From IMG/VR virus record IMGVR_UViG_3300025154_000006, positions 19,469 to 83,468 of that record: DNA of 64,000 bases, one strand, 5' to 3'. Position numbers and translations under genes: made by a program. The notes beneath the pieces were generated by a model, which worked only from the letters and a program-made list of their open reading frames with translations, was not told the DNA's origin and made no database searches. The DNA is from a virus. This document shows, piece by piece, positions 8,080 to 56,095 of this stretch (position 1 is its first letter; each line of letters opens with the position of its first letter).

Positions 8080-9055
8080 TGTTTCTTCCAGTTACAGACA
8101 TTCTATAAAGACCGTTTTCTAATTTGACCTGAACATCTTCAACTATTATACTTTCGATAATGTGCCTTTGTGTTCCGGTAGAAAAAAGATTGACGTTATA
8201 AATATCTCTTGTTTCAAGTCTTGGATCAAAACGCGCGTTCACCGTAAACATTTTTCTTCGCTGACGCGCCCTTTTCTGGTAAATTGCAGCGGCCTCTAGG
8301 GCGCCAGAATCTAATTCGCTAAGTCTATACATTCTGGTAACAATGCCGACGCTTTTTGCCGTTTCCTCGTCAATTGAAATTCCAACATCTGCCGAATAAA
8401 CAATTCCATCAGAACTTAGTTGAGAATTGTCTCCGGTACTTTCGGCAATAGATTTTACATAAACAGCGTCAACCGCATCGCGAGTAGCAGAATAGGTAAA
8501 CTCTAATTCTCTATTGCTAGAGTGCGTTATTTCTATAGGGCGTTGTTGAATTATCGACTGAATTGCGCTTTCTGTATTAGATTCGTAGTCTACAAAGATA
8601 GCTTCTCGTCTATCCTTTAGTTCTGTTCTCTTAATGTTTTCTACAACAAGCGTGTCTCCTCCGCTTCGGCCAAGAGATATGGTGACTGGACTTGGGTAAT
8701 TTATATCGGCAAAAACATACGAATAAACCCACATCCCGTTACAATATACTGAGATATAATAATCGTAAAGAAAAACCCGAATTTTATAAACAATAGTCGA
8801 GTCGTTTCCAATTAGGTATTTTTGATTATTAACAAAAGTAGAGCCAAGTTTTGTTCTTGTATAAATATATTGTTTTCCGCTTTGGTCGCCAACACCAACG
8901 TCTTTTGATATATAAATATAAATTTCCTCAAGAACATCGTTTGATTCCGAAAACGAACTTCGCGCGGTTATATTTGTTGATATAACCAATGCGGTAGCCG
9001 CCGATGGCGTAAGGTCAAAATAAATATCGAAACCTCCATTTGTTACATTTGTCAT
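8072..9055 (-). CDS. minor tail protein
   Basis: 327 aa, translationally coupled within the tail operon. Confidence 0.6.
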   Translation of the reverse strand: MTNVTNGGFDIYFDLTPSAATALVISTNITARSSFSESNDVLEEIYIYISKDVGVGDQSGKQYIYTRTKLGSTFVNNQKYLIGNDSTIVYKIRVFLYDYYISVYCNGMWVYSYVFADINYPSPVTISLGRSGGDTLVVENIKRTELKDRREAIFVDYESNTESAIQSIIQQRPIEITHSSNRELEFTYSATRDAVDAVYVKSIAESTGDNSQLSSDGIVYSADVGISIDEETAKSVGIVTRMYRLSELDSGALEAAAIYQKRARQRRKMFTVNARFDPRLETRDIYNVNLFSTGTQRHIIESIIVEDVQVKLENGLYRMSVTGRNNE

Positions 9056-12000
9056 TAAAGACTTATCTCGCTTTCAGATATATTTGCAACACTAATAATG
9101 TTGTCGCCAGGAAACACAGTTGACGTTCCCGCAATTTTGCACAGCATATCTAATAGTCCCGCTATGGAATAATCGTGATCGCCGCTGATTCCGGTAAAGC
9201 CAAAAACATTAACCTTATCGTTATTGTGAAGATATACAAACGTGCCCTCTGGATAGAGACCGCTTGCTTTGTTTCCCTTTTGGGGAGCAACTTCTGGTAT
9301 TGTGTTTGTAATCCAAACCTTATCCAATAAAGTGCCATTAAAATTTGAATCCAGTTGCCAAAGACCAGCGCCTGTTGGCCAGGTTGTCCTACAGCGTTCC
9401 CTAATCCAAATAAGTTCTCCGCTTGTTGTTATCCACACCTTCCATTGCATAAAGTTTGCGGGAATATACCAGCCAGAACTTAAGCAGCAGTGATATGTAT
9501 CGGTATCAACAAAATACATTTGGTTTTCCGTTGTTCCATCAAGCCACTTGAATAAATAAAACTCTATGCAGCCACCATTTATGTATTCTCTTCCGCCACC
9601 ACCCGGCGGATCAGAGCTATATGGTGGCTCGACAGCTCCTTTTAGGCGCAACTGAAATGGACCAAGCGGCGTCGTGGGCGGAACCGGTTCTCCATAAAGG
9701 TATCCGTCTGGAATGCCCACGTGAAATATGCTACCGTTGCCACCAACATCAACCCAGGCGCCATAATCAACTACAAAAAACTCCATATCCGTTTTTCCAG
9801 TAGCTGGATTTAGGTCTAATGGCAAAACTCCTATTTTGTCTTGTGTTACAACAAAGCCAGTAGTCCTAAATTTTGGGGGGTCTATAATTGACCAAATCCC
9901 AACATGGAATATGTCGTCGCTAGTTGCAATACTTCCATCGTTTTCTTTCCAGGAATAATAAAGTTGAGAACCATGGATTGGCCATGTGGCGGTTGATGTA
10001 AGTTTGTATTCGATACCAAACTCTCCATCGCGGTGCCAAAATCTAAGATCGTAGGTCTTGTTTGTAACCGGCCCGAAGCCGTATTCTTCTAAAATTGTTT
10101 TTATCCCATTTCTTACAACGGCCAAGCATATTTTTCCAACCTCCATATAGCCAACCAAATAGCTGTTTCCATCTACGCCCATACCAACAAGCCCAAGTTT
10201 TGAGTAGCTTCCAATTACATTTCCCCTTAAGTAGCAATCAAAATTCCACGCAGAGTATGGCCTTTGGGAGAAAAAGATTTGCGGAACTCCCTTTGTTGTA
10301 TTGGCAAGTTTTTTGGGAGATTCTCCCTCTACAACCGAGCTGCTATATGTTTCGGAAATTATACTGATCGATATTTTTCCGGTATTTTGGGTTGCGTTAT
10401 AATAATTTCTCCAAGAGAAACCAAATGGAAGGGAAGATAGTTCTTTTAGTTTCCCTTTTCTTGTAATGGTTGTAGACCAGGACTGTCCGCTTTGTATTTC
10501 CGTGGCATTTGCCTCATAACTTCCAAATGTAGAATATTCCTCAAAGTCGCTGTGGTCCGGTGGTATATCCCACGCATCTGTATCATTTAAGCAAACAGGA
10601 TAAACAACCACATTTAGCGGATCGCCTGCTACAGCGCCGTTTGTAATTTCCATATCTAATATTATCGTCACTTCCCTTTCTCCAAGCCCATCATCGACGG
10701 GAGTAATAATCCAAGCGCAACTCCCAAAAACGCCAATAGTTAGAAGGTTTGACGTTGTTAGATCATTAATCTCCAATTCATAACTTGTCATTGGGTTGGG
10801 GTCAACAGAAATCCCATTCCAGCAATATAATTTGAACGGAAGCAGATCTGTATTAAGGTTTTCCAATTGCATATTAACGTTTTCTTGAAGTGGAAGAAGC
10901 GACACAACAATACCGGGAACCTCTATGCGTTCGGTATAATAAGTTGTGTTTCCGCTTGGAGATATAACTCGTATTCCAACCTTAATTAATTTTTTTCCCT
11001 CTCCTGGATTTGCCATATTATATATAACCGGATAAGAACCCGGGCGAACATTTTCCTCGAACCAGGTTTGCTCTGGGTGTTTATATGTACTATCAAGTTC
11101 GCCAATTAAAGAAATATAGGTTGTTTGAATGCCAGAATTGTCCTCAACCAACATAAGAGCATAGAAGTCATCGTTGTTTGTATTGGTTGGCGTGTTATCT
11201 ACAGGATTTGGGCCGGGTGCGCCAGATGAAATACCCGCCCTGCTCCAGCCATAAAGCCTTATCTCAATAGTTTCCGAATTGTCAAATAACGGATAATCTA
11301 CACAAAATTCTTTTAGGTCTTTACACCAGTGATCGGTTGCGGCTTCTCCGGCATGTGTTTGATAAACAAGTCCGCCGGCATCTATGACTTCTTGGGTCCA
11401 AAAATCGCAGGACAAAGACCAGTTTATTCCGGTTTGGGTTTCGACCCTATAGAGATTATTCAACTCTTGAACCCGATCAAGAATTGCCTGTTTTCCTTGC
11501 AGTTCCATGTAAAACGGGTGTGTCATCATCGAAGTGTGCCACATTGCGTCTGGAACAAAATTTATATTGTATCCGCGACTTCCGTCTTCAAGCGTTGCCC
11601 TTATATCCGATATGACAACATCGTGGAACTTGACATATTCAGTTCCCTCTGTCGTATTAACTCCGGCTTCAATTTTAGAATATGCGCCAGTGATAAGTAG
11701 GGGATTATCTAAATATTCTTCCGACGATGCCTTTATTTTGACCGACCAACCGGAATTGGGCGAGCCGCTTATGCTATCGATAATAAGACTTACGAATTCC
11801 GCACTTTCTCCAATAAGTTGATATGGCTTGGTTGTGGAATAATATCTATTTGTTGATGAAAAAACGAGGTTATCTCCACAGGAAGCGGCCAGAAACCGAA
11901 GATTAATTGTAGAAACAAGGGTTTTTCTGTCGATACTAAACGTAATACCGTCTTGGCTCCAAAGTAGAAGCGTATATTTTGTTTCAGAAACAAATTCTTC

Positions 12001-42389: not shown

Positions 42390-42616
42390 TAGCACAGGTG
42401 TTCACATCCGTAAGTGCTGCTCTTCAAGCCGTCGAGAAGATGGCTGTCGGTCAGCGTATCGTAGTCATGGGCAGAAACGCCCATGTTGTCAACGGCATTG
42501 GTTGCAAGACTGTCCAGTATGATAAACAGTCTTTGTCCGCAACCGCGCGCCCTGTCGATGGGCGCGCGTTCAACCGCGTTAACAACGGACTTGTGTCCAT
42601 GAAGGAGGCAGAATGA
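42383..42616 (+). CDS. small early protein
   Basis: AAGGAGGT RBS. Confidence 0.6.
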   Translation: MPVAQVFTSVSAALQAVEKMAVGQRIVVMGRNAHVVNGIGCKTVQYDKQSLSATARPVDGRAFNRVNNGLVSMKEAE

Positions 42617-43056
42617 CCGTTATGCAAGCCTGGCAATGGATTACCTCTAGGTGGTGTGCGACTACCTGGACACCCATTGACCCAGATGTCCGTACGATCC
42701 TGCGCCTACCCGCGCTTCTGGGCATGGCGCACGGCATGTTGGTTACAAGGGCTGGCGCGAATGGCTCACAAGAGTTCATTAAGCGCATAAACACGAGGTG
42801 AAGAATGTTTGCGATCTACGAACCGATCATGCGTTTACTTGTCTCGCTTATTGTGTTGGCTGGAAATGCCCGATGTCCCGGACATGGCAATCTGGACTAC
42901 ATGGTAAGGCGGGTACTGGCAGACGCCAAAAACCGTCTACAACAGCAAGCCTAAGTCGTTGCGTCTGTGCTTATCCGAACAGAGAGATAAGCACAGAACC
43001 GACCTGCTTAGGTCGCTACTCTGGTGCGGAGTTCGCACTGCGAAAAAAGGAGAGAA

Positions 43057-43332
43057 ATGGCTACCCTTCGTATTCCCAAGTCCACAAATGGCGAGAAGTC
43101 GTTACTTCCTCGTCGCTCGACTCAATGGTTGCTAGACGCCATGGGCGAGATGTTCAATGACAACTGTACCGACGCCGAGATACTTGGCGTTACTCGTGTT
43201 CAGGTCATGCGCGGCCTGGCCACGGCAGGCGTTCCTAACGACGAGATCAGGGAAATCTGGCAGGGGCAGTTCGCGTTGAAGAGCGCCCAGGAGAGGTATG
43301 ACCTACTCTCCTACTTCGTGTATGGCGAATAG
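43057..43332 (+). CDS. hypothetical early protein
   Basis: AAGGAG RBS directly after a palindrome copy. Confidence 0.65.
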   Translation: MATLRIPKSTNGEKSLLPRRSTQWLLDAMGEMFNDNCTDAEILGVTRVQVMRGLATAGVPNDEIREIWQGQFALKSAQERYDLLSYFVYGE

Positions 43333-43530
43333 GACTACCGGAGCCCTACGCACCGCCAACGATTTCACTATATAAGTCCTATATAGGGAAATGTAGGACT
43401 TATATCGTCCATCCAAAGAAAGGAGATAACCCTATGGCCCTTGATCGTGTAGTGTTCTGGTCGTTTGCCGCATTTGCGCTATTTGGCGCCATCGCTATCC
43501 TGTTGTTCGCCTAGACACAAGGAGTTCAAA

Positions 43531-44028
43531 ATGTCTCAGAACCAAAAAACCGTAATCACGCTTGCCAATCTTGGAAGCGCCGTCGAGGTTCGCCTGGACC
43601 CCGAAATCGTCTTCGCCATTGCTACCGAGTTCAGTGATAACCCGCTTGTCCAGAAGTCTGACGAACTGGCGGCCCTGGAAGCGGAACTTGCCGTTGCGCA
43701 GGCTGGCGTTGACGGTTTTCGCACTGCGAACCAGAGGATAGGCGATCTTGCTATCCGGAAAGTTCACCTGGAACATGCCGCTCGCGCCATTCTGCTGGAA
43801 AAGAAAGGCGTCAAGAACATGGCGGAGTTGCCATTGGCAATCCGCGGCGTGGTTGAGAAATATCGCCAACAAATCCTCGCACTGGATACCACGTACCAGG
43901 ATACTTGCAAAGAACTGGCAGAAATGCGCCAGAAACTTGAAATGTCCGAGTTCAATGCCCATTTGACCGCAAAGGTCAATATCGAAGCGGCGATCTCCGC
44001 CATCATCAAGGAGGCCAACGGTGGCTAA
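43531..44028 (+). CDS. coiled-coil early protein
   Basis: AAGGAG RBS, ATG at 43531. Confidence 0.7.
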   Translation: MSQNQKTVITLANLGSAVEVRLDPEIVFAIATEFSDNPLVQKSDELAALEAELAVAQAGVDGFRTANQRIGDLAIRKVHLEHAARAILLEKKGVKNMAELPLAIRGVVEKYRQQILALDTTYQDTCKELAEMRQKLEMSEFNAHLTAKVNIEAAISAIIKEANGG

Positions 44029-45052
44029 GAAGTCCGTATTACCCGTTTCAAACGGTGTCAATTCAATCATCAACAACGAGGAGACCAAAATGTCCAAGAA
44101 GAATTCCGCCAAATCCATCAATGCCATATCTGATCAGCCACTTGCCGCGCCGTTTACTTTTCAGCCCGCCAATGGTCGCAACGACCTGGCTCTGCTGCGC
44201 GTAGACGGCGACGAAGACAAGGCTCCGTTCTACATCGACGCGCCCGACCGTGTTCACGGTATTTGCAATGCCGCGACCCATGTCTGGGTTGGCACATATC
44301 CAGTGTTTGAACCCGGAAAGTTCTACTTCCGCATGTCCCGGGACGACGTCAAGAAAGAATTTGGTGTCGAAAGCATGGGCTATATCCGCGGTAGTGCAGA
44401 GTTGCAACAGGCTGTTACAGAGGGTAAGTATGCCCACACCAAGCCGATTGTTGAGGATGCCTGGTATCGCGTGTCCTGGAACGGTCATCGCTTCACCCTC
44501 AAGGTTGTTGAATGGCGCAATTACGAGAAGGAAGAACCCGAATGGATCACCTATGATCGGGATGCCCTACGCCTGCTGGACGGCCTGGACGATGTGTACA
44601 AAGCGGTTGCTGCCAAACGCGCCCTGCGTCTGTTCTTTGCCGAGTCCATTGAGTGGGCGCTGAAAGAGAAAGCCGCACAGGAACCGTTTGTTCGCAATAA
44701 CGACCTGGTTGGCCTGAAAGAGCGCCTGAATACCCGCGTTCTCAAGACAAAGGCGTTCAAGGATTATGGCAACGTCAAGGCCATGATCAAGAAGGCGGAC
44801 GAGGCCAAAGAGAAGGGCGAAGCTATCCCAAATTCCTTCAAGCGCATGGAAGTGGCACTGGCCCGGAAAGCTGGTATGGTTCGCACTGCGAACGGCGACG
44901 AAATCCCGGAAGATGCGCTGATCGGGAAAAACATCGTTCTGGTGCTTGGAACCACCGCCATTCCTGGTAAGCGCGCCGTGACCACGGAAAACTTTATGAT
45001 CATCACCCGCGTGATTGCCCGCCAGGGCTACTCGGTTTCGATTGTAGAGTAA
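44021..45052 (+). CDS. hypothetical early protein
   Basis: 343 aa; RBS-preceded starts at 44021 (GTG) and 44090 (ATG). Confidence 0.75.
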   Translation: MAKKSVLPVSNGVNSIINNEETKMSKKNSAKSINAISDQPLAAPFTFQPANGRNDLALLRVDGDEDKAPFYIDAPDRVHGICNAATHVWVGTYPVFEPGKFYFRMSRDDVKKEFGVESMGYIRGSAELQQAVTEGKYAHTKPIVEDAWYRVSWNGHRFTLKVVEWRNYEKEEPEWITYDRDALRLLDGLDDVYKAVAAKRALRLFFAESIEWALKEKAAQEPFVRNNDLVGLKERLNTRVLKTKAFKDYGNVKAMIKKADEAKEKGEAIPNSFKRMEVALARKAGMVRTANGDEIPEDALIGKNIVLVLGTTAIPGKRAVTTENFMIITRVIARQGYSVSIVE

Positions 45053-45064
45053 CCATCAACAATA

Positions 45065-45105
45065 GCCCAGAGAGGAATATTGCCCATCCTCTCTGGGCGT
45101 TTTTG
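45065..45105 (+). terminator. intrinsic terminator closing the GC-rich early block
   Basis: GCCCAGAGAGGA/TCCTCTCTGGGC 12-bp stem followed by GTTTTTG. Confidence 0.8.
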
Positions 45106-45133
45106 TAGTATGATACGAAAAAGGAGATTAAAT

Positions 45134-45433
45134 ATGACTAAAAGAGAATTACGCAAACTTGCCGAGAGTAAAGATATTGGCTTTATGGCGGCCAATGGAA
45201 TATTTTTCTTCGTATTTCCGGGAGATTTTAAGGCACATGCGGCAACCAAAGAGATGATTGAACGGGTACGGGCGTTGCCAGACTTTGAGAAGCCTAAGGT
45301 GTCTCGGGCGCCAGAGAATGCAGTCTCTCTTGAAGGATTGTCCCAAGAAGAACGGGATGCCAAAGCACTTGATCTTATGGGCGCCGTTACCATTCCTGGG
45401 CTTGATAATTATCCCGTTGTAGAGGAACAATGA
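45134..45433 (+). CDS. hypothetical protein
   Basis: AAGGAG RBS. Confidence 0.6.
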   Translation: MTKRELRKLAESKDIGFMAANGIFFFVFPGDFKAHAATKEMIERVRALPDFEKPKVSRAPENAVSLEGLSQEERDAKALDLMGAVTIPGLDNYPVVEEQ

Positions 45434-45639
45434 AACAGACATATCAACAGCGTTTTGGACATGATCGGGTTCGTAAAGCGAATAAGAATTCCAAGAAGTT
45501 TGCTCGACAACAAGGCGCTTTGGCAAGAATGCGAACAATGCTTGATGGCAATATTCGTTTATATGGCAATCTGGATAACTATTGGCAAAAGTATACCAAG
45601 TCTCAGATTGCTGTCCTTGAAGCAAAAGGAGTAAACTAA
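45430..45639 (+). CDS. small basic protein
   Basis: coupled ORF. Confidence 0.55.
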   Translation: MKQTYQQRFGHDRVRKANKNSKKFARQQGALARMRTMLDGNIRLYGNLDNYWQKYTKSQIAVLEAKGVN

Positions 45640-46037
45640 TGACTTTGCAAACCTGGATGAATGAGTTTTATCCGGTTCCCGCTAGTGAGGTGTTGGAAAA
45701 AGACGCGCCGGCACACTCTTTACGGAAATGGAAGGGATTACTAAAAGAGAATTTAGAAAAACACGATTGCATCACCAATTTTAATGGCGACGTTTTAGGC
45801 CACGGTGGAAAAATTGAAATATCAGAAGCGACGTGTGCGCTGTGTCTGCTTTATCGGTTTGTCGGAAACCTTTGTTCTGCTTGTCCGCTTGCTGTTTCGC
45901 GTGGGCGCTCATGTTTTTTGCCCACATCCGATGAGGATTATTTTAGCCCATGGAGAGCATGGTTGTATGAGCGCAATCCGCTTCCAATGATTAATGTGCT
46001 TGAGAAGGCCATTAAGAACAAGGAGACAATATTATGA
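45639..46037 (+). CDS. Cys-rich hypothetical phage protein
   Basis: CALC...CSACPL...C. Confidence 0.65.
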   Translation: MTLQTWMNEFYPVPASEVLEKDAPAHSLRKWKGLLKENLEKHDCITNFNGDVLGHGGKIEISEATCALCLLYRFVGNLCSACPLAVSRGRSCFLPTSDEDYFSPWRAWLYERNPLPMINVLEKAIKNKETIL

Positions 46038-47842: not shown

Positions 47843-48201
47843 AAACTACTCATAAATGTGCAATAAATCAAACAATAAGAGATAAAACAATAAACAAAAG
47901 ACTTGAAAACAAAATTGCCAAATTGTTTTTTGACGATCAGCAATTATATCTTAAGGTAATGTCAAGATATTTTTTGCTTGTTGAGAATCAACGAAAAGAA
48001 CTTGTTATAAAATGCAATAAATTGGCTTATGGTTGGGCTTGGGATATTGACAATAAAAAGTATAAGCCAGACCTGGAACACAGCGCTGATTACCTAAGAG
48101 CGCTTGCCGAAGAGTTGTACGGTACAGAATTTGGTGATCGGCTATTTGCCATTCTTGAGAAGAATAAAAGTGAATAGTTCGCAATGCGAACAAATTGCCT
48201 A

Positions 48202-48230
48202 TTGACTTCTCTTGTGAAAAAATATATACT
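48202..48230 (+). promoter_or_regulatory. sigma70-type promoter
   Basis: TTGACT-17 nt-TATACT, 10 nt downstream of a palindrome copy. Confidence 0.75.
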
Positions 48231-48251
48231 AAGGATATAGGAGAATAAAAC

Positions 48252-48641
48252 ATGATTGAAGAGTTTATAACCTTGGCTAATCCGTTTTCGTCTGAAAATA
48301 TTTCCAGCCCACAAAAATGTTGGGTTTACATTGCAAGTCCCTATTCTATTGGTAATAAGCTAGAGAATGTTCTGGATCAGTTTCGGGCTTCTGATGAACT
48401 TTTACATTTGGGTTTTCATCCAGTTCCTCCGCTTTGGACCCACTTCTGGGACGAGGTAAGTCCCAAACGTTATGAAGCGTGGATGGAATATGATGAGCAA
48501 ACTATCAAAAGATGTGATTGTCTACTTCGTTTACCAGGAGAAAGCGCTGGAGCAGATCAGGAAGTAGAATTTGCATTGAAGATTGGTGTTCCAGTCTTTT
48601 ATTCTATTCAAGAGGTTGTAAACTATAGCTATCATGGTTAA
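48252..48641 (+). CDS. nucleoside deoxyribosyltransferase-like (DUF4406/DUF1937-like) protein
   Basis: VYIASPYS...CDCLLRLPGESAGADQEVEFA..G.PV. Confidence 0.8.
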   Translation: MIEEFITLANPFSSENISSPQKCWVYIASPYSIGNKLENVLDQFRASDELLHLGFHPVPPLWTHFWDEVSPKRYEAWMEYDEQTIKRCDCLLRLPGESAGADQEVEFALKIGVPVFYSIQEVVNYSYHG

Positions 48642-48939
48642 AAGAGCAAAATGGTATGTTGATTTTATTCGTAAAGAACCTAATGAGCAAACAATGCTAA
48701 AGGTAGCGCGTTTACTTATAGACGAATGTAGCGAACTTATGAAAGCGCGCACCAAGAAAACCAATGTCGCTGCAATTGCCATTTTGGATGCACAAGATCA
48801 GAAATGGCGCCTTATATGCCAACGATTGCCAGAATTCAAATTGCGCACTAATGGTTTTAGAATAATGGTACTTGCTACATTTTCTAACTTGATACCATAT
48901 TTGGCACACTGGAAAGAAGCACAGACAAAAGGAGAATAA
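48634..48939 (+). CDS. hypothetical protein
   Basis: operon-packed ORF. Confidence 0.55.
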   Translation: MVKRAKWYVDFIRKEPNEQTMLKVARLLIDECSELMKARTKKTNVAAIAILDAQDQKWRLICQRLPEFKLRTNGFRIMVLATFSNLIPYLAHWKEAQTKGE

Positions 48940-48940
48940 A

Positions 48941-49159
48941 ATGAGATGTGCTTATTGTGGAAGTAATAAACATACCATTAAGAATTGTCCAAAAACGTGG
49001 TCTGGATCAGTTAATCATTTCCACATGCGCTGTGCTTATTGTGGAGCGAAAGACCACGAAATTGAAGCTTGTTATAAAACATGGTCTGGTAATGCAGCGC
49101 GTGCACGGAACCCCAAAAGCGTTGCAGACCATTTCGTTCTTGATAAAGAAAAGAAATAG
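48941..49159 (+). CDS. double CCHC zinc-knuckle protein
   Basis: CAYCGSNKHTIKNC and CAYCGAKDHEIEAC (C-x2-C-x4-H-x4-C twice). Confidence 0.8.
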   Translation: MRCAYCGSNKHTIKNCPKTWSGSVNHFHMRCAYCGAKDHEIEACYKTWSGNAARARNPKSVADHFVLDKEKK

Positions 49160-49170
49160 GAGAGATCATA

Positions 49171-49524
49171 ATGGATACCATTGTCATACTCACAAAACAA
49201 GCAGTTGATACCATGGATCTGAAAGTACTGGATCTAAAAAACATTAAAGATCATGCTGATGCTATTGAAAAATGTAATGCAATTCTGCCACAACTTGAGG
49301 GCAAAGTGGCAATCTGGCTCGATCCCGAACCGCTCTATATTGGCATTGCTCTAATGATTACAACTTGGTTATTACACCAGGTTCGTAGTGCGAACTGGTT
49401 TGTAACACAAAAAGAAGTAGGATGGCCAATGAAAGACTTCTTTGATGCTGGAAATGATTATTTGAAAGGAGAGAATACTCAAGAAGTTTTAAGTCCGCTA
49501 GGCGCAATTAATATTAGTTGCTAG
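49171..49524 (+). CDS. hypothetical protein
   Basis: AGGAG RBS. Confidence 0.55.
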   Translation: MDTIVILTKQAVDTMDLKVLDLKNIKDHADAIEKCNAILPQLEGKVAIWLDPEPLYIGIALMITTWLLHQVRSANWFVTQKEVGWPMKDFFDAGNDYLKGENTQEVLSPLGAINISC

Positions 49525-49570
49525 TTATGTCCTAATCACAAACTCTAATTATCTCTAAAGGAGATTTCAA

Positions 49571-50035
49571 ATGGCTACTCACAAGCAAAATACGTCCCAG
49601 TACAAAGCATATTCAACCAAGCACAATCTGTCTCTGATCAAAGTTTGTACTGAACCTGCTTCAAGATTCTTAAATAATGGAACTCAAGTTGCGTCTTTCT
49701 CTACCGTGATGATCGATGCTTATCAGGTTGAGGGTCAACTACAGATGGTTAATGAGACCTGGGTCCGCATTTCCGCTTTTGGTAAACAGGCCGAATCCAT
49801 TGCTCGTCTTCAAAAGGGCGAGTTTGTTCTTCTGGAACTCAGGGGTCATCCTATTATGGACACCTGGACTAAAGAAGATGGTACAACTGGCGTTTCTTTG
49901 ACACAAAAGTTCAACGGTTTCCCACAACGCGTTACTTTGGTAAAGTCAGATACTGCCTCTGTAGTTGAACAGGAACATCAAATTACGGAAGATCTTGCTT
50001 CCGCCATGCCTGCCGAATCGGATATTCCGTTTTAG
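49571..50035 (+). CDS. ssb: single-stranded DNA-binding protein
   Basis: ETWVRISAFGKQAE..LQKG OB-fold pattern; acidic tail ending DIPF. Confidence 0.85.
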   Translation: MATHKQNTSQYKAYSTKHNLSLIKVCTEPASRFLNNGTQVASFSTVMIDAYQVEGQLQMVNETWVRISAFGKQAESIARLQKGEFVLLELRGHPIMDTWTKEDGTTGVSLTQKFNGFPQRVTLVKSDTASVVEQEHQITEDLASAMPAESDIPF

Positions 50036-50054
50036 TGTTATTTCATGATACAAT

Positions 50055-50087
50055 TCTTGGGAAGTAGAGAGATTCTACTTCCCAAGA
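50055..50087. terminator. 14-bp perfect hairpin after ssb
   Basis: TCTTGGGAAGTAGA/TCTACTTCCCAAGA. Confidence 0.6.
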
Positions 50088-50166
50088 TAATACCATACAG
50101 GAGATACCATGGATTTTATGCGGTTTCAGGGTTTGTTCGATTAGTTTTGGTGTGATCTCTGCCATA

Positions 50167-50194
50167 TTGACATATTATCATAAAGCAGTAAAAT
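50167..50194 (+). promoter_or_regulatory. promoter upstream of the cassette array (Pc-like)
   Basis: TTGACA-16 nt-TAAAAT pointing into the array. Confidence 0.65.
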
Positions 50195-50271
50195 CGAGGT
50201 TAGGCTAATAGCCGTTAGTATATCAATATGTTAGCCCGCTCTGGCTGTTCAAATGGCAAAAGGAAAATATC

Positions 50272-50454
50272 ATGTCTCAAACCGCAAGTGAAGTTTTCGA
50301 GCAAGCAATGGATGCCGAATTTACCGATGGTAATTTGGCGGAAGCAATCACCCTGTATGAAGCCGCCGCGCAGTTGTACATCGAGCAGGGTTCACCCGCA
50401 GACGCGGAAGTCTGTCAGCACATGGCAGAAATCGTAAACGAGAAAGCTGGCTAA
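50272..50454 (+). CDS. cassette 1, small acidic helical protein
   Basis: AAGGA RBS; stop TAA lies within the GGCTAAC core. Confidence 0.7.
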   Translation: MSQTASEVFEQAMDAEFTDGNLAEAITLYEAAAQLYIEQGSPADAEVCQHMAEIVNEKAG

Positions 50455-50560
50455 CGGCTTGCGTGAGCGGCTTTACGCCAGCACAGAACCTTGTAAATTT
50501 ATGACGACGGCGGGCAAAATGCCTATGCCTTCAAATAGTCCGCTCCACGCTTTGTTGGGC
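50449..50560 (+). repeat. attC-like site 1
   Basis: GGCTAAC...GTTGGGC with internal inverted arms (GCGTGAGCGG/CCGCTCCACGC). Confidence 0.8.
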
Positions 50561-50590
50561 GTATACTTGGCAAAAAAGGAGCGTGAAAAA

Positions 50591-50797
50591 ATGAAATGTG
50601 CGATATGCGGTGACGAAGTTGATACAGAAAATCCGTTTATGACAGGCGGGGTTTATGGGAAAAACCCAATCACCTGGCGCATGGCATGGATGCACGGATA
50701 TTGTCTGGAAAACGCAATTGACGATACAAAAACTCAACCCGCGAAATCTATCCAGTTTGAAAATCGCCACGATGAATATGTTTTCGCCGTCCAGTAA
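50591..50797 (+). CDS. cassette 2, small zinc-finger protein
   Basis: CAIC...HGYC; AAGGAG RBS. Confidence 0.7.
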   Translation: MKCAICGDEVDTENPFMTGGVYGKNPITWRMAWMHGYCLENAIDDTKTQPAKSIQFENRHDEYVFAVQ

Positions 50798-50800
50798 AAC

Positions 50801-50897
50801 GCCCAACAATGCGTGCACTGGACAATTGGCGGGCGCGGGCAAAGCGGACGGTGAATCTACACCCTCCGCCAATTGCCAGTAACGCTTGCCGTTAGGC
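50801..50897 (+). repeat. attC-like site 2
   Basis: GCCCAAC...AATTGGCGG/CCGCCAATT...GTTAGGC. Confidence 0.85.
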
Positions 50898-50906
50898 TTC
50901 TTACTT

Positions 50907-52076
50907 ATGTCAGCAAAAATACTCGAAGGCAATGTCCTTGAAACCCTGAAAGACCTGCCTGCCTGCTCGGTTCAGTGCGTGGTAACTAGCCCGCCTTACT
51001 ACGGCTTGCGCGATTATGGCGTTGAAGGGCAAATAGGTTTAGAGCCTTCCCCCGAAGCCTATGTTGAACAACTTGTAAAAGTTTTCCGTGAAGTGTGGCG
51101 AGTACTAAAAGATGATGGTACTTTGTGGCTCAATCTTGGTGATAGTTATTGGGGCGGCAAAGGTCAATCATCACAGGCTTGATCTACCGAACACCAAGAC
51201 CGCAACACCTTACAAAAGGCACAGCATCAAATAACTGGCAAAGGTGAAACACGTCCCACAGATGGCAAGCATCCAGTTATCAAAGCCAAAGACCTTATCG
51301 GCATCCCCTGGATGGTCGCCTTTGCTTTACGGGCTGATGGTTGGTATCTGCGCTCCGAGATAATTTGGGCAAAGCCTAATCCTATGCCTGAGAGCATGAA
51401 GGATAGACCAACAAAAAGCCATGAGCAAATATTTCTTTTCTCAAAGTCGCCTGATTATTTCTATAACTACGAAGCGATTTTAGAGCCTGCAAATTATGAC
51501 GGGCGAAAAGATACCGTAATGAAAGGCAGTAAGAAATATAAAGATGGTTCTTATCTTGCGAACGGAAACGCAAACAGCCTATCGGTCAAAGGGTGTGAGC
51601 GTTGGCGTTTCAAGAATTTACAGGAAGATGGTCAGCAACCCAACACAATCCACGAAAGACGCGCCGCAGGCTTGAAAGATGAAGTCTATGCCGTCAGAAA
51701 TAAAAGGGATGTTTGGACAGTCAGCACAAAATCTTATAGTGGCGCACATTTCGCCACATTCCCAACAGAATTGATTGAGCCTTGCATTTTAGCAGGCACA
51801 AAGGAAGGTGATACCGTGCTTGATCCGTTCAATGGTTCAGGCACAACAGGCGAAGTATCCATCAAACATCATAGGCTTTATGTCGGTTGTGAGTTGAATC
51901 CGAAGTATGTAAAACTCACACACCGCAGGCTGTCCCAAGTCCAACCCGTCTTAATGCAAGAACGAAGCCTAACACCGCTTGCACTGAACGGGGCTAAGGC
52001 TCCCGATTTCCAGCATTCATTCCCTGCTGATGTACTGGTAGGCGAAGGCGCATTGCCTAAGCCGCCCCGCCAGTAA
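50907..52076 (+). pseudogene. cassette 3, beta-class N4-C/N6-A DNA methyltransferase with one in-frame TGA
   Basis: VTSPPYY and LDPFNGSGTT motifs; both halves are in the same frame, separated only by TGA at 51180..51182. Confidence 0.8.
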
Positions 52077-52091
52077 AGCGAACCGTTAGCC
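51967..52091 (+). repeat. attC-like site 3
   Basis: GCCTAAC...GTTAGCC with inverted arms. Confidence 0.85.
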
Positions 52092-52119
52092 AGCCCTTTT
52101 GCTGGCGGAAAGGTCTCTT

Positions 52120-52350
52120 ATGTCACAAAGCGATTTTTATTCGGGTTTTGTGCCGCCCGAAGATTGGCTTCCTGGTAGCCCAAAACGGGATGTTCCTGTT
52201 CCGCAAGGCTCGCCCGCGTGGCCGTTCGGATGGAATCAAGAGCGAGTAGACAGAGCAAATGCTTGGGAAAACATAAAACTATTTCTGATTCTCGGTTTTG
52301 TTTTCGTTCTTGTAATTGCCTGTCCATCATTGCTGTGGATGGCTGGCTAA
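52120..52350 (+). CDS. cassette 4, small membrane protein
   Basis: C-terminal TM; stop within GGCTAAC. Confidence 0.65.
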   Translation: MSQSDFYSGFVPPEDWLPGSPKRDVPVPQGSPAWPFGWNQERVDRANAWENIKLFLILGFVFVLVIACPSLLWMAG

Positions 52351-52441
52351 CCTTGCGTGGTGTCGGCCAGGTGGTGGGTTTCGCGGCGCGGACAGTTTTT
52401 CCAACCCCGCCACCACCTGCTGCACACGCTAGACATTAGAC
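52345..52441 (+). repeat. attC-like site 4 (right core ATTAGAC)
   Basis: GGCTAAC...CAGGTGGTGG/CCACCACCTG...ATTAGAC. Confidence 0.75.
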
Positions 52442-52461
52442 TCCTTCGTGAGGAAAATAAA

Positions 52462-52623
52462 ATGAACGAAAATGAATGGATTAAGCAAGCAGAAGAATAT
52501 GAACGCATGGCACAAAAAGCATACGATGAAGGTGATGAAGTCGCTGGTGAATTGTGGGAACGTAAAGCACAATCATGTCGCTATGCCGCTTGTAATGCTC
52601 CCGTTGAAAGTGGCGGGGTCTAA
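52462..52623 (+). CDS. cassette 5, small acidic protein
   Basis: GAGGA RBS; stop within GTCTAAC. Confidence 0.65.
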   Translation: MNENEWIKQAEEYERMAQKAYDEGDEVAGELWERKAQSCRYAACNAPVESGGV

Positions 52624-52659
52624 CAATATGTTCGGCGGCACGTCCGCAAAGGGAGTTTT

Positions 52660-52896
52660 ATGAATGCTCTAAAACTAGCAATCCTGTTTCACGAAACGTA
52701 TGAGCGTCTCGCTTCATCGTTTGGTTACGAGACAAGAGACGATACTAAAAAGTTTGACGAGACTTCTAAAAATGGTAGGCTCATGGTGGCTGTGTGTGGC
52801 GAAATTTTGGCGCACCTAACACGGCGTTCGCCTGACCAGAAGCGGGCTGGCCGAAAATCCAAGCGTTTATCTGCTCCCGCCGCTTCTGGCAGGTAA
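52660..52896 (+). CDS. cassette 6, hypothetical protein
   Basis: GGGAG RBS; FHETYERLA..FGYETR; reads into the attC-like site. Confidence 0.65.
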   Translation: MNALKLAILFHETYERLASSFGYETRDDTKKFDETSKNGRLMVAVCGEILAHLTRRSPDQKRAGRKSKRLSAPAASGR

Positions 52897-52911
52897 CGCA
52901 AACCGTTAGCC
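52814..52911 (+). repeat. attC-like site 6
   Basis: ACCTAAC...CCAGAAGCGG/CCGCTTCTGG...GTTAGCC. Confidence 0.8.
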
Positions 52912-52935
52912 CCCTATTTTATAAAGGAGTAAGCC

Positions 52936-53187
52936 ATGCCTGAATATCCTAAAAAACAAAAATACGAATCCCACAAATTGCATGCTTCACAAACGATAGA
53001 TGTATCCTTTATTTGTTTGCGTGCTGGTGAATTTGTCCATATTGACGCAAACGGTAAAGCGGTTGAAATCAAAATGGACAACGAAGGAAACGTTGGAGTC
53101 TGTGTATCAGAAGGCGTGGTAGTTGCTACGTTTGCTGAAATATACGGGGGCCAACATTATATTGGGCTTCTGAGCAGAGGTGAATGA
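52936..53187 (+). CDS. cassette 7, hypothetical protein
   Basis: AAGGAG RBS; reads through the short site at 53149..53167. Confidence 0.65.
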   Translation: MPEYPKKQKYESHKLHASQTIDVSFICLRAGEFVHIDANGKAVEIKMDNEGNVGVCVSEGVVVATFAEIYGGQHYIGLLSRGE

Positions 53188-53396
53188 TGGCAGAAAAACA
53201 AATCGTTTGTGATAGTTGCGATGAACAATGGGAGAGGTCATTCTTCTGTGAAATCTGTTCGCATGGTGGTCATCACGAAATGCGAGAAGTCCCAAATATT
53301 ATGTGGGATGGATTGCCCGGTGAAGAGTATTACTGGGAAGAAGAATGGATTGATAACGGTGATATTTGCATGAATTGTTGCAATGGCCATCCATGA
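53184..53396 (+). CDS. cassette 8, Cys-rich protein
   Basis: CDSC, CEIC, CMNCC. Confidence 0.65.
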   Translation: MMAEKQIVCDSCDEQWERSFFCEICSHGGHHEMREVPNIMWDGLPGEEYYWEEEWIDNGDICMNCCNGHP

Positions 53397-53397
53397 A

Positions 53398-53525
53398 GCC
53401 CAACAAAACATGTACCTGACGTGGTGGAGTCTACGGCTTCGGTCGGCATTTTCCCGCCTCAGAAGTATCAGCATCAGAAGCGGATTCTACTCCTGCCATC
53501 ATGCGGGTAATGTAAGCCGTTCTAT
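53398..53525 (+). repeat. attC-like site 8
   Basis: GCCCAAC...GCCGTTCTAT, with arms resembling sites 2, 3 and 6 but more degenerate. Confidence 0.7.
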
Positions 53526-53537
53526 TGTAATAAATTG

Positions 53538-54086
53538 TTAGCTATCTATTGTTTTTCCCTCAATGATTTCTGTTTGATCTTCTTGTTCTATAGTAACTAT
53601 GCGTTTCGTTTCTACCATTGTGAGTTTTGCCCCTTTAACGGTTGCTAGAATTTCCATTGCTTTTGCGTCATTGGTTTTGTCCGATGGCTTTTCGTCCACC
53701 GGTTCTTTAATAACAGGATAGATAAAGTCCATGGTCTTTCCTAAATGCGCATCTATTTTGAGAAGGCTTGCAATATACTTATCTCGATCAAGTATACCAG
53801 CAGAAAGAGACGTTCGTATTTCTTCCGCTTCGTTTAAAAGTGTTTCAACATTCTTGCGTCTACTTTCTGTAATTCCGTCAATCAAAGACGAAAAAGAAGT
53901 ACGGATTGCAGATTGAATAGTACGAATTAACTCAGGAGATTGCGCAACATATCTATCGAAAGTCCAGAGATCAATGCCTACCTCTGCGCAAGCATCCTTC
54001 TTATTCTTACCCGAGAATAGGAGATCCATAACTTTCAAGATTTTTTCTTCCCGGACAACTTCTGTAATTGCATTTGTTTTTGTCAT
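53538..54086 (-). CDS. N-terminal HTH protein, possibly terminase small subunit
   Basis: KKDACAEVGIDLWTFDRY HTH followed by helices and a beta tail; lone minus-strand gene in the right arm; start at 54086 inferred. Confidence 0.55.
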   Translation of the reverse strand: MTKTNAITEVVREEKILKVMDLLFSGKNKKDACAEVGIDLWTFDRYVAQSPELIRTIQSAIRTSFSSLIDGITESRRKNVETLLNEAEEIRTSLSAGILDRDKYIASLLKIDAHLGKTMDFIYPVIKEPVDEKPSDKTNDAKAMEILATVKGAKLTMVETKRIVTIEQEDQTEIIEGKTIDS

Positions 54087-54135
54087 TTTGGTATTATAAT
54101 CTAAAAATGTTCGCAATGCGAACCTAGGAGACAAA

Positions 54136-54375
54136 ATGAAAGAATATATTCTTAGAACCACTGGCGGCGAGGCTGCATGTTTTTTGTCAAAAGAACACGC
54201 AGATAGACTAAAACAAATTGTTAATGGTAAATACATTGAAAAAACATTTTTCCAAACCGGAAAACAAACAGTTTTCGTTTTTAAAGTTAACATGGTTTGG
54301 AAATTAGTAATCGGCATCGAAATTCCTATCTATAAAGAATACTATATCCAAGAGGTCCAAGAGAGCGATCTATGA
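54136..54375 (+). CDS. hypothetical protein
   Basis: AGGAG RBS; TATAAT at 54095..54100 upstream. Confidence 0.55.
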   Translation: MKEYILRTTGGEAACFLSKEHADRLKQIVNGKYIEKTFFQTGKQTVFVFKVNMVWKLVIGIEIPIYKEYYIQEVQESDL

Positions 54376-55442
54376 AACTACACTATTTTGATAAAATCTA
54401 TAACTTTGTAGAGATTTTCGATACTGAAACCGGATTTCATTACACTTCTGGTATTTTGACCGAAAGCGGTAAAGATAGTGGCGTTGATCCATTAATGCGT
54501 TCTTGGCCTGCACTTATGGACATAGGAATTATGGGTGGTTGTTCATCTTCTAAAGTTTGTCAAGTTGGTTGTTATCAACAAGGAAAGAATACGCCAAAGG
54601 GTCATATGTCAGTTGATCTTTTCCGCAAAATCATTGACGAAGCTGCGGGAAAGACTTTTTCTGTAGCCCTGGGTGGTTTTGGCAATCCAAATGAACATCC
54701 AAACTTTCTTGAGATTATTCGCTATGCCAGAATGAAGAATATTGCTCCGTCTTATACTACTGCCGGGACCAATCTAACAGACGCACAAGTACAGGTTACT
54801 AAACATTATTGTGGTGCTGTGGCAGTTTCGTGGCACGATCAACCATATACCTATGGCGCAATTGAGCGTTTTGTGAATGCCGGTTGTATTACTAATATTC
54901 ATTTTGTGGTAGGGAATAACACAATTGATGAAGCTATTAGACGTCTAGAAGAAAACGATTTTCCCAAGGGTATCTACGCTGTTATCTTCTTACTGTATAA
55001 GCCTGTTGGCAAGGGAATGCCAGAAAACCGTCTTAGGGTCACAGATCCGCGTATTCGTAGATTTTATGAACTGATTGAAGCGGAGCATCCCTTTAAGTGC
55101 GGTTTAGATAGTTGCCATATTCCTGGAGTTATGAACTTTACCAAGAACGTCGCTATAGAAAGCATTGTGCCGTGTGACGCCGCAAGATTTTCAATGTATA
55201 TAACACCAGATGGTTTTGCGTTACCGTGTTCATTTGATACCAACAATCGCCAGTATGCTGTTGACATTAAGGAAATCGGTATTCAGGGCGCCTGGGAAAG
55301 CGAGGCTTTTGAGAAATTTAGAAATCATTATAAAACTAGTTGTTCGCACTGCGAAATAAGTAAACGTCTTAACTGCCTTGGCGGATGTGGCCTAATGGCA
55401 GAACAAATCAATCTTTGTAAAGATTATTCTAAAGGAGAATAA
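54372..55442 (+). CDS. radical SAM/SPASM-domain protein
   Basis: CSSSKVCQVGCY cluster motif, GG.GNP; C-terminal CDAA..YITPDG...PC and CSHC...CLGGC. Confidence 0.9.
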   Translation: MKLHYFDKIYNFVEIFDTETGFHYTSGILTESGKDSGVDPLMRSWPALMDIGIMGGCSSSKVCQVGCYQQGKNTPKGHMSVDLFRKIIDEAAGKTFSVALGGFGNPNEHPNFLEIIRYARMKNIAPSYTTAGTNLTDAQVQVTKHYCGAVAVSWHDQPYTYGAIERFVNAGCITNIHFVVGNNTIDEAIRRLEENDFPKGIYAVIFLLYKPVGKGMPENRLRVTDPRIRRFYELIEAEHPFKCGLDSCHIPGVMNFTKNVAIESIVPCDAARFSMYITPDGFALPCSFDTNNRQYAVDIKEIGIQGAWESEAFEKFRNHYKTSCSHCEISKRLNCLGGCGLMAEQINLCKDYSKGE

Positions 55443-55443
55443 A

Positions 55444-55755
55444 ATGAAAATTCATATGTCTTTTGTAACAAATAGCAGCTCATCTTCATTTATCATTATT
55501 GGTACAAATAAACACAACGAGAAGTTTGTAGAAGACAGAGACATCAAAAGTGAACTTTTCTCTGAATTTGAACTTGTTTTCACGCATGAAGGTGATGATA
55601 ACGGCACGGTTTCTATTAGTAATGTCACAAAGCTTCTCTCTGAAATGACAATCCCGCAAGCCAAGCAATACTTTGTTAAAAAAGCCAGAGAGCATGGAAT
55701 TGATATTGATGTAAAAGATGTAACATTTGACTATGGAGGTTACTATAATGGCTAA
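55444..55755 (+). CDS. TNSSSSS-motif protein 1
   Basis: MKIHMSFVTNSSSSSFII. Confidence 0.8.
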   Translation: MKIHMSFVTNSSSSSFIIIGTNKHNEKFVEDRDIKSELFSEFELVFTHEGDDNGTVSISNVTKLLSEMTIPQAKQYFVKKAREHGIDIDVKDVTFDYGGYYNG

Positions 55756-56095
55756 GATCCGTTTATCTTTTGTAACGAACAGTTCTTCTTCGAGTTTTAT
55801 TCTTGCTATTAAAAACGATATTACTCGTGAAGAACTTGAAGAAATTGTAGCCAAGAGGATAAAAGATACCCAATTTTCTTCTGAATTTGATTACTATGAT
55901 GTTGAAACAGAAGAAGAGGCTATTGACAAAATTGTATCTTCGCTATTAGAGGATCTCAAATGTGCCATGGCGCTTGATAACTGGAAGGTACTTGGCGGAG
56001 ATTGCTCAAATGAAAGCGAAGATATTTTCAATGGCTTTATATATCAATGTGGTTTTGAAAACACAGAGAAAATCAAAAATAAGTTTTTTGACTAG
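55748..56095 (+). CDS. TNSSSSS-motif protein 2
   Basis: MAKIRLSFVTNSSSSSFIL. Confidence 0.8.
   Translation: MAKIRLSFVTNSSSSSFILAIKNDITREELEEIVAKRIKDTQFSSEFDYYDVETEEEAIDKIVSSLLEDLKCAMALDNWKVLGGDCSNESEDIFNGFIYQCGFENTEKIKNKFFD

Follow-up and report, generated by a model that had tools for sequence, protein, structure and literature searches.

Integron-type cassette arrays have already been published from phages. In Qi et al. (2023; PMC9892861), a screen of 10,705 phage genomes yielded 17 clusters of attC sites lacking an integron integrase (CALINs), five methyltransferases were counted among the phage cassettes, a divergent attC orientation was noted in phage P12002L, and five of six attC sites taken from virulent phages were recombined by the integrase IntI1; it was proposed there that phages gain counter-defence genes by way of cassettes. 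Work in E. coli and V. cholerae with IntI1-3 (Loot et al., bioRxiv 10.1101/2022.09.11.507474; listed as Nat Microbiol 2024 in the references of PMC13323075), reports that IntI inserts cassettes at double-stranded genome sites (attG, 5'-GWT-3') and that the folded attC of such cassettes is easily deleted by replication slippage. The locus analyzed here is a well-resolved further case: positions 50230-53525 of a window of 64,000 nt (bases 19469-83468 of the 83,468-bp IMG/VR record IMGVR_UViG_3300025154_000006; unless marked otherwise, coordinates are window positions), which an initial annotation had described as eight co-oriented units separated by sites with ..AAC and GTT.. ends, are confirmed as a real integron-type cassette array (CALIN) inside a complete phage genome. 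The explanation preferred for the whole, to which a probability of about 0.75 is given, is that of a CALIN of eight cassettes drawn from the integron pool of the host, inserted by host IntI in trans, set behind a promoter-like site and partly decaying.

The record has direct terminal repeats (DTRs) and a CheckV completeness of 100%, and thus represents a complete phage genome; matches to the portal, minor tail and endolysin families of PHROG mark it as that of a tailed phage, which looks virulent. The array sits between the gene for a single-stranded DNA-binding protein (SSB; 49571-50035, PF00436) and a convergent gene (53538-54317) with an open reading frame (ORF) of 259 aa, and its composition is foreign to the surrounding phage DNA, with a GC content of 0.45-0.47 in the two 2-kb bins over the array as compared to 0.37-0.39 in the flanking bins. 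Profiles for integron integrases and for tyrosine and serine recombinases (TIGR02249, PF00589 and PF00239), which were positive on control genomes, have no match in the whole 83,468-bp record; any recombination at this locus must therefore use an enzyme supplied in trans. The earlier statement that the window holds no integrase is thus borne out, TIGR02249 and PF00589 being blank in the window and in the complete genome, and the accompanying suggestion that an integrase might be encoded elsewhere in the phage genome falls away, which leaves a host IntI in trans. With no intI gene adjacent to it, the array is not a complete integron.

Sites of the attC type are built of imperfect inverted repeats in the order R''-L''...L'-R', with ends ..AAC and GTT.., an unpaired central spacer, extrahelical bases confined to one arm of the bottom strand and a variable loop, and span ~60-140 nt. 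A degenerate bottom-strand pattern written from three sites of the array (B, C and F) was used to scan public collections, and a covariance model (R1) was built from 26 viral sites aligned with B, C and F (29 members) and run over the window with filters off, its E-values being rough. In the 64-kb window R1 finds six sites at E <= 0.022, all of them within 50448-53524 and thus within 3.1 kb, with the next match at E 6.8; over the other 19.6 kb of the genome there is nothing better than E 1.6. The sites and two further remnants are as follows:

50448..50560, + strand: attC site A; R1 56.4 bits, E 1e-12, matched on the + strand; fold z -0.07
50801..50897, - strand: attC site B; R1 75.7 bits; z -3.56, the bottom strand folding at -26.7 kcal/mol into R and L boxes around an unpaired spacer, with bulges in the 3' arm
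51967..52091, - strand: attC site C; R1 84.7 bits; z -2.24; rank 1 of 377
52345..52441, - strand: attC site D, divergent, 3' core ATTAGAC; R1 16.3 bits, E 0.022; long-stem hairpin, z -1.06
52615..52639, no strand: attC remnant E, consisting of right core GGGGTCTAAC, AATAT and GTTCGG; not matched by R1
52814..52911, - strand: attC site F; R1 75.9 bits; z -2.11
53146..53170, no strand: attC remnant G, consisting of GGGGGCCAAC, ATTAT and ATTGGGCTTC, the cores alone being left; not matched by R1
53398..53525, - strand: attC site H, the last site; R1 37.1 bits, E 1e-07; z -0.86

The scores of B, C and F are partly by construction, as these sites are in the training set of R1 and were the source of the pattern; A, D and H are outside the training set. 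The covariance-model check that the initial annotation had called for, here made with a family-specific model, places all six sites in the array and confirms it as a CALIN (at least two clustered attC sites, no integrase). The eight units stand as first described, yet the sites are not all co-oriented: A is matched on the + strand and the other five on the - strand. The two 19-bp "sites" at 52618-36 and 53149-67 are not attC, each consisting of a right core, 5 nt and a left core. A strict scan for RYYYAAC/GTTRRRY cores with an ungapped stem score returned 20 pairs and no "good" site and was set aside as too rigid, since most real cores depart from the consensus; Rfam 15 on 48000-56000 gave no attC-type match and four weak miRNA/snRNA matches.

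The array sites measure 97-128 nt; four of them (B, C, D and F) fold to attC architecture, and A and H fit it through the model alignment alone. In unconstrained bottom-strand folds B, C and F are clearly better than their shuffles, their shape being that of two helices, a short R and a long L, set apart by an unpaired spacer, with bulges in the 3' arm of the L helix and a variable loop; the hairpin of D forms less clearly, and A and H form none, so that the folding check proposed at the outset succeeds plainly for three sites, more weakly for a fourth, and fails for two. The attC of an array that adjoins an integron integrase (locus L082, see below) is likewise non-canonical in its free fold; together with A and H this makes the unconstrained minimum free energy a weak test for the family. 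A constrained-fold ranking of 377 AAC...GTT/ATT candidates in the 83-kb genome puts C first, B third and D seventh. Rank 2 belongs to an AAC...GTT-ended hairpin at 42487-42584 (-26.8 kcal/mol), where R1 does not match; the stretch at 42-46 kb has a GC content of 0.49-0.53, and none of its four ORFs (42798-46034) has a Pfam family.

The aligned viral sites resemble B, C and F far beyond what the fetching pattern specifies. In the consensus structure a 6-bp R box and a 16-bp L box/stem are separated by an asymmetric spacer, and the extrahelical bases that were to be looked for are present at two positions on the 3' arm of the bottom strand (columns 105 and 113, unpaired). At 9 of its 22 pairs both sides have changed. 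Among the 29 family members 97.3% of cells pair, compared to 28-47% with slid partners; doubly changed cells number 97, compared to 11-23 after sliding; and covariation scores 0.412, compared to at most 0.087, with none of 500 shuffles reaching the observed value. The attC structure is conserved through compensatory changes, not through sequence.

A second kind of regularity concerns the cassette ends. The sequence of 50230-53525 agrees with the first description, with left cores starting at 50230, 50554, 50891, 52085, 52435, 52630, 52905 and 53161 (the last, for unit 8, being a corrected position) and right cores ending at 50455, 50807, 51973, 52351, 52624, 52820, 53155 and 53404. Pairing was scored over 7 variable positions per core for each left core against each right core. 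Own-end complementarity for units 1-8 is 6, 6, 7, 7, 6, 3, 6 and 7 of 7, or 48/56, compared to 25/56 for pairing with the neighbour's end inside the same physical site, and of the 40,320 ways of assigning left to right ends only 2 score that high, namely the real arrangement and the one in which units 1 and 4, whose right cores are identical, trade places. The proposal that each left core is the reverse complement of its own right core, and not of its neighbour's, is therefore upheld, as are the partial match of unit 6 (3/7) and the three stop codons within a TAAC core (units 1, 4 and 5, at 50452-54, 52348-50 and 52621-23). The same rule holds across the attC family at sites defined by regular expression, with own-end pairing of 4.02 compared to 2.87 of 5 in 55 viral cassettes and of 3.93 compared to 2.83 of 5 in 29 bacterial or metagenome cassettes. 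The crossover lies between G and TT (written G/TT below), so that the start of a cassette is the partner of its own right core. Site H has a 3' core, GTTCTAT, that is not complementary to its own right core; for the site that closes an array this is the expected state.

These two results also bear on whether the hairpins might be phage terminators or repetitive extragenic palindromic (REP)-like repeats whose AAC and GTT ends arose by chance. Such a reading could draw on the folds of A and H, which are no better than shuffles, and on the strong hairpin outside the array at 42487-42584; against it stand the 2 in 40,320 permutations and the covariation with its controls, as well as the adjacency of the attC family to IntI genes, the sharing of whole cassettes, and the fact that R1 matches nothing outside the array in 83 kb. 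It is considered extremely improbable.

Two details of the sites call for comment. Remnant E would be an attC that has lost its L''...L' interior: in the metagenome contig L082 the same right core, followed by AAT, runs on into a full 125-nt attC (60.2 bits), which argues that the stub is an attC without its interior, the deletion itself being a reading of the sequence. The cassettes flanking remnant G keep their own-end pairing, at 6/7 and 7/7. As for the inverted site A, unit 2 (50455-50806) is probably a cassette inserted backwards at AA/C of the right core of cassette 1; site B would then be the attC of cassette 1 itself. The ends of cassette 2, GTTGGGCGT and ACGCCCAAC, are complementary at six of seven scored positions, and the observed end complementarities fit the backward insertion equally well. 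Site A is also 74.5% identical over 106 nt to an attC in locus L020.

The attC family is not confined to this phage. Its pattern occurs at 25 loci in 24 IMG/VR records and at 42 loci in GTDB genomes, in which R1 finds 104 sites; counted by title, 33 of the 42 GTDB loci belong to Chloroflexota, Anaerolineae, Caldilineales, Villigracilis, Amarolinea or Ardenticatenaceae. Loci in Mucilaginibacter, Hanstruepera and Verrucomicrobiaceae have no R1 match and are probably chance pattern matches. The host of the phage is thus probable, as judged from these sequences, to be a member of the Chloroflexota, class Anaerolineae. The search for intI in this probable host group, also among the checks first suggested, was positive: 10 of the 26 GTDB genomes searched carry an IntI above the TIGR02249 cut-off, and family attC sites adjoin IntI in bacterial genomes as well as on one metagenome contig. 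In an Anaerolineales genome (L079) a family attC of 77 bits lies ~0.8 kb from a divergent intI over the cut-off, the first cassette starting ..AAAACATA/GTTGGGCAGT and ending with the matching core ACTGCCCAAC. The metagenome contig L082 has part of an integron integrase, its 3' 283 codons (366.6 bits, cut-off 265), which is 54-57% identical to Anaerolineae integrases and leads directly into the array.

Among the 24 related viral records one integrase is over the cut-off (G021, 405.8 bits) and a second is just under it (G005, 257 bits). The first of these records (L026; 34.7 kb, 93% complete, classed viral) has intI and then an array on the same strand as its cassettes, the first cassette being a DNA methyltransferase; in the second (L027, classed viral) the integrase adjoins an array of the attC family. 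Terminase_6N is matched in 9 of the 24 records, including all three that are DTR-complete. Two complete phages with DTRs and a CheckV completeness of 100%, L016 (array at 7821-10655) and L019 (1888-7016), of 43.3 and 38.4 kb, hold 11 and 12 R1 sites in one orientation and match Terminase_6N. The possibility that the phage has a recombinase of its own, of an unrecognised family, which acts on these sites with no need of host IntI, could be accommodated among the many ORFs of the genome without a family; it is nevertheless rated as very unlikely, given that no tyrosine or serine recombinase domain is present in 83 kb, that sites of the same family adjoin classical IntI genes, and that the IntI found in one related viral record, and just under the cut-off in a second, make IntI the known partner of the family.

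Arrays of 4-13 family attC sites also occur in L044, L059 and L074, which are binned to Magasanikiibacteriota, Woesearchaeota and Saccharibacteria. Arrays on contigs binned to the candidate phyla radiation (CPR) and DPANN could be mis-binned contigs, phage contigs or real cross-lineage spread.

Two cassettes, 3 and 5, recur as whole units in other arrays. The cassettes of the window are as follows:

50272..50454, + strand: cassette 1 ORF, 60 aa; weak TPR-like matches below Pfam cut-offs; stop TAA within the GGCTAAC core
50591..50797, + strand: cassette 2 ORF, 68 aa, Cys-rich; no family found
50907..52076, + strand: cassette 3, N6/N4 DNA methyltransferase; PF01555 2.1e-50 and phrog_67 3.1e-77 with TGA read as X
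52120..52350, + strand: cassette 4 ORF, 76 aa; no family; stop within the GGCTAAC core
52462..52623, + strand: cassette 5 ORF, a 53-aa helical protein; stop within the GTCTAAC core
52660..52896, + strand: cassette 6 ORF, 78 aa; runs through attC F (52814-52896) and stops at TAA of GTAACGC; ends pair 3/7
52936..53187, + strand: cassette 7 ORF, 83 aa; no family; reads across remnant G, its end overlapping the start codon of cassette 8
53184..53396, + strand: cassette 8 ORF, 70 aa, Cys-rich, Zn-finger-like; no family above cut-off

In L082 the integrase gene is followed by G/TTAGAC, then, as first cassette, by a relative of cassette 5 with 77% identity, and then by a full attC. Homologs of the methylase of cassette 3 are present in two viral loci, L008 (87% and 79% identity in two parts) and L023. 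In all three arrays the similarity starts 12-13 nt after the G/TT (or A/TT) crossover and ends in the cassette's own attC, with unrelated neighbours; the start and the right core vary between the arrays yet stay complementary, perfectly in the window and in L008 and at 8/9 in L023. The comparison of cassette order in related phages that had been proposed is thus answered in part, by one cassette in three different settings. A direct comparison lacks a close phage relative: megablast of 28000-50000 against the phage collection found none, nor were relatives found, in sets that may omit near-identical records, for the SSB in viral and metagenome contigs, for the putative large terminase (a 537-aa ORF with no family match) in viral contigs, or for two exact window strings in viral contigs. 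The earlier claim that the units are integron-type cassettes is accordingly well supported, by the end pairing, by the adjacency of the attC family to IntI and by these two recurrences.

The cargo had been called phage-like, of which the N6_N4 methylase is confirmed (PF01555); for the Zn-finger-like cassette 8 the nearest Atlas clusters are viral with a score of 0.89, a lead only, and many small contigs carry members of the cluster formed with it at 90% identity. The seven ORFs other than the methylase (53-83 aa) have no family above the Pfam and PHROG cut-offs, and cassette 7 has no relatives in viral contigs in a search made without a positive control. The role of the cargo is likely accessory and possibly one of anti-restriction or counter-defence. 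Methyltransferase-like ORFs related to cassette 3 are matched by tblastn in L004, L006, L007, L016, L019, L020, L022, L024, L044 and L054, and DNA methylases appear to be common cargo in viral and bacterial arrays of this attC family.

The methylase frame of the window contains a TGA codon at 51180-51182; the L023 homolog has W in its place, and the L008 homolog is open across that part. A contig from another run (X5) covers 51137-51810 with 0 differences, which confirms the base. The gene of this phage is either defective or read through at that codon. Genome-wide recoding of TGA was rejected, as translation table 11 leaves ORFs as long as 2881 aa open and an in-frame TGA is found in this gene alone. 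The frames of cassettes 3 (in its 51967-52076 part, which runs through attC C) and 6 both end at the TAA of a conserved L' motif, GTAA(A/C)GC, GTAAAGC in the case of cassette 3; their attC sites thus supply the stop codon and a C-terminal tail. By tblastn the C-terminal 41 residues of cassette 6, which are encoded within attC F, weakly match (46% identity) part of an attC in L007; similarity of attC DNA alone may account for this. Just right of the array, the ORF at 54372-55442 contains a SPASM iron-sulfur domain (PF13186, 7.2e-09).

The left border of the array has two features:

50167..50194, + strand: promoter-like site TTGACA-16-TAAAAT, a candidate cassette promoter agreeing with the consensus at 11 of 12 positions
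50199..50236, + strand: array head with three direct GTTAG cores at 50199, 50214 and 50230, the last of which, ..CAATAT G/TTAGCC, is the left boundary of cassette 1

The promoter-like site is the best of 6 in 49900-53700, a count that is not above that of shuffles (average 5.2). The TTAGCC of the head pairs with the GGCTAA core at 50449-54, and the head is a candidate attI-like or secondary insertion site. Heads linked to IntI read AAAACATA/GTTGGG, AAGGATA/GTTAGG and ATCATGA/GTTAGAC, that is, ..ATA/GTTRG or ..TGA/GTTAG, and those of two other phage arrays read AAGCAATA/GTTAG; the resemblance to the IntI-linked heads is too short for the term attI, which is defined by function. In L019 (504-1230) and L024 (12497-13220) the array comes after a homolog of SSB (31-35% identity), from which it is separated by a hairpin and one small ORF. 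The junctions of both read TCAAGCAATAG/TTAG; they agree over 15 bases (TCAAGCAATAGTTAG) although the DNA around these has diverged, and the first cassettes that come next are not the same, each of them pairing with its own right core.

A wider proposal may be ventured from these heads: several unrelated phage lineages, with hosts that are probably Anaerolineae, would keep an integrase-less landing pad for cassettes (..CAATA(T)/GTTAG, behind a phage promoter and downstream of ssb) that is loaded by host IntI with counter-defence cassettes, such as methyltransferases, and is a maintained platform and not debris. It is suggested by the 11-12 attC sites in two complete DTR phages, by the common position of the arrays, and by the identical 15-nt head with different first cassettes in two phages; it is offered as a tentative proposal, held at somewhat less than even odds.

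Sequence runs from other samples show how the array is joined to the phage and whether it varies. The stretch is present nearly whole in six groundwater runs (96-100% of sampled words), partly in others, and to a small part in sludge, activated-sludge and lake runs; four of the six near-whole runs are flagged as possible source samples, and some may be one data set filed twice. Contigs from four runs were aligned at 85% likeness; uncovered parts of the array in X7, X8 and X16 and the small shares (0.07) of X13-X20 were not used as evidence of absence or, X16 apart, of habitat. In X5, which is not flagged as a possible source, contigs spanning 49500-50918 (from ssb through cassettes 1-2 into 3) and 53434-54500 have 0 differences and join the array to phage DNA on both sides, while overlapping or near-abutting pieces cover most of the interior, with no listed piece over 50919-51136. 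The longest contig with exact cassette proteins, of 83,583 bases, carries the ssb product too. An assembly chimera, in which reads of a bacterial integron were joined to a phage contig through repeated attC sequence, conflicts with both of these findings and is highly improbable, for all that the samples contain attC-like sequence in multiple copies (depth peaks at D and H) and that Logan contigs break inside the array.

Where contigs do end or change, loose ends coincide with site borders. Contigs of X5 and X8 match site B only (50799-50897) and have other flanks; others match site D only (52363-52440), again with other flanks, and the bin 52339-52505 has a depth of 67 in X5 and 23 in X8, compared to 3.5-8.4 for the phage-only contigs of X5. 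Run X16, from activated sludge, has a methylase of 90-94% identity and copies of sites B, C and H in other surroundings: 50820-50896 (site B) is matched with 1 mismatch, and two contigs with depths of 48 and 16 match 53398-53514 and 53402-53521 (site H) with different upstream flanks. Two short contigs of X7 agree with the head up to 50232 and then diverge, and in one contig of X8 cassette 8 starts directly after an attC-type 3' end, a weak joint with 21 nt on one side; the X7 and X8 contigs are no more than hints of turnover. Counts of contigs with exact proteins are uneven, at 10 for cassette 4 and 23-32 for the others (32 for cassette 1).

The array could instead be a frozen relic: a block that came from an integron of the host chromosome in one step (illegitimate recombination, homologous recombination or a single IntI event) and that no longer recombines or is shuffled. 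The divergence of the X7 contigs after 50232 and the uneven protein counts do not favour this, nor does the common 15-nt head of L019 and L024, whose different first cassettes point to repeated insertion at a fixed phage site, and four or five of the sites are still good attC matches. What lends it some weight is that two attC sites are reduced to core stubs, one of which cassette 7 reads across, that site A is inverted, that the methylase has TGA where a homolog has W, that the ends of unit 6 pair at 3/7, and that six runs, four of them possible source samples, contain nearly all of the sampled words. A relic of this kind is regarded as unlikely, with odds well short of those of the preferred explanation.

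In the explanation by host IntI, the cassettes would come from the integron cassette pool of the probable Anaerolineae hosts, and a host-encoded IntI acting in trans during infection would insert them as circles, the first at a GTT site downstream of ssb and later ones at the head or at existing attC sites. From the phage promoter-like site before the array, most cassette genes would be co-transcribed with early/replication genes. The array would by now be partly decaying, with two attC sites having lost the hairpin interior and one cassette lying backwards; ongoing cassette shuffling by host IntI is likely, and part of the array looks fixed.

Several observations weigh against this explanation or parts of it. 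The two attC stubs, the inverted site A, the in-frame TGA of the methylase and the 3/7 ends of unit 6 mean that much of the array may no longer be recombinable. Sites A (z -0.07) and H (z -0.86) do not form the attC hairpin in unconstrained folds, and site D scores only 16.3 bits. For divergence at the head there are two short contigs, aligned at 85% likeness, and the X8 joint at cassette 8 has 21 nt on one side; such cases can come from other organisms. Cassettes 7 and 8 have no relatives in 401 genomes of the class of genome G046, in a search made without a positive control. The host assignment has the distribution of the attC family as its single basis, and the pattern that fetched the family came from the window's own B, C and F; moreover, some family arrays lie on contigs binned to Patescibacteria, in a Woesearchaeota metagenome-assembled genome and in a Methylococcaceae genome. 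Because arrays of the family thus also occur on contigs of other lineages, the host is what we infer and not a result.

Phage integron arrays have been described recently and from a handful of cultured phages, and the acquisition of accessory genes by this route is rare but known. The present case is clean and quantitative, comprising a complete genome, no recombinase, an intact crossover signature and an attC family traced to Chloroflexota integrons. Chloroflexota are common in groundwater and activated sludge and have few cultured phage-host pairs, and the family provides a lead for host prediction of an uncultured phage. Further leads are the eight small phage-selected cassette genes, for anti-restriction or anti-defence screening, and a natural series of attC decay, with full, inverted and stub forms of the site, from which the way cassettes become fixed can be read. 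Larger arrays of this attC family are numerous in public viral collections, and integron-phage gene flow in environmental bacteria may exceed what surveys of cultured phages suggest.

In the literature searched, within the terms and library used, no paper was found on phage arrays of a Chloroflexota attC family. The closest known systems are the phage CALINs of Qi et al. (2023), with which the array shares small co-oriented cassettes, attC sites, the absence of an integrase, N6_N4 methyltransferase cargo, one divergent attC and boundary motifs of the GTT type. It differs from them in belonging to an uncultured 83-kb groundwater phage known from sequence alone, in having an attC family tied to Chloroflexota integrons, with a relative of one cassette found beside IntI elsewhere, and in its size: six attC sites and two remnants, compared to 3 attC sites and 4 ORFs in TJE1, the largest example found in the text of that paper, whose full list may include larger ones. 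The 11 and 12 attC sites of L016 and L019 far exceed the 3 of TJE1, subject to the same limit. With regard to the findings of Loot et al., attG insertion is a possible way for the first cassette to enter DNA without an att site, at G/TT or A/TT, and deletion of attC by slippage fits remnants E and G.

A similar comparison can be made with the sedentary chromosomal integrons of Anaerolineae/Chloroflexota, among them those whose intI and cassettes share a strand, which the array resembles in the R box, the 3-nt and 5-nt spacers, the L box, the two bulged bases and the covarying stem, and also in the G/TT crossover, the head junction ..ATA(T)/GTTRG and the mostly short ORFs without known function. 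Unlike these, it has no intI and no demonstrated attI, it lies in a phage behind a phage promoter-like site, and two of its sites have decayed. Finally, like the hypervariable accessory ("moron"-type) regions of phages it places small genes of foreign composition and without known function between conserved modules; unlike them, each of its units has defined recombination-site borders and a known enzymatic route of gain and loss.

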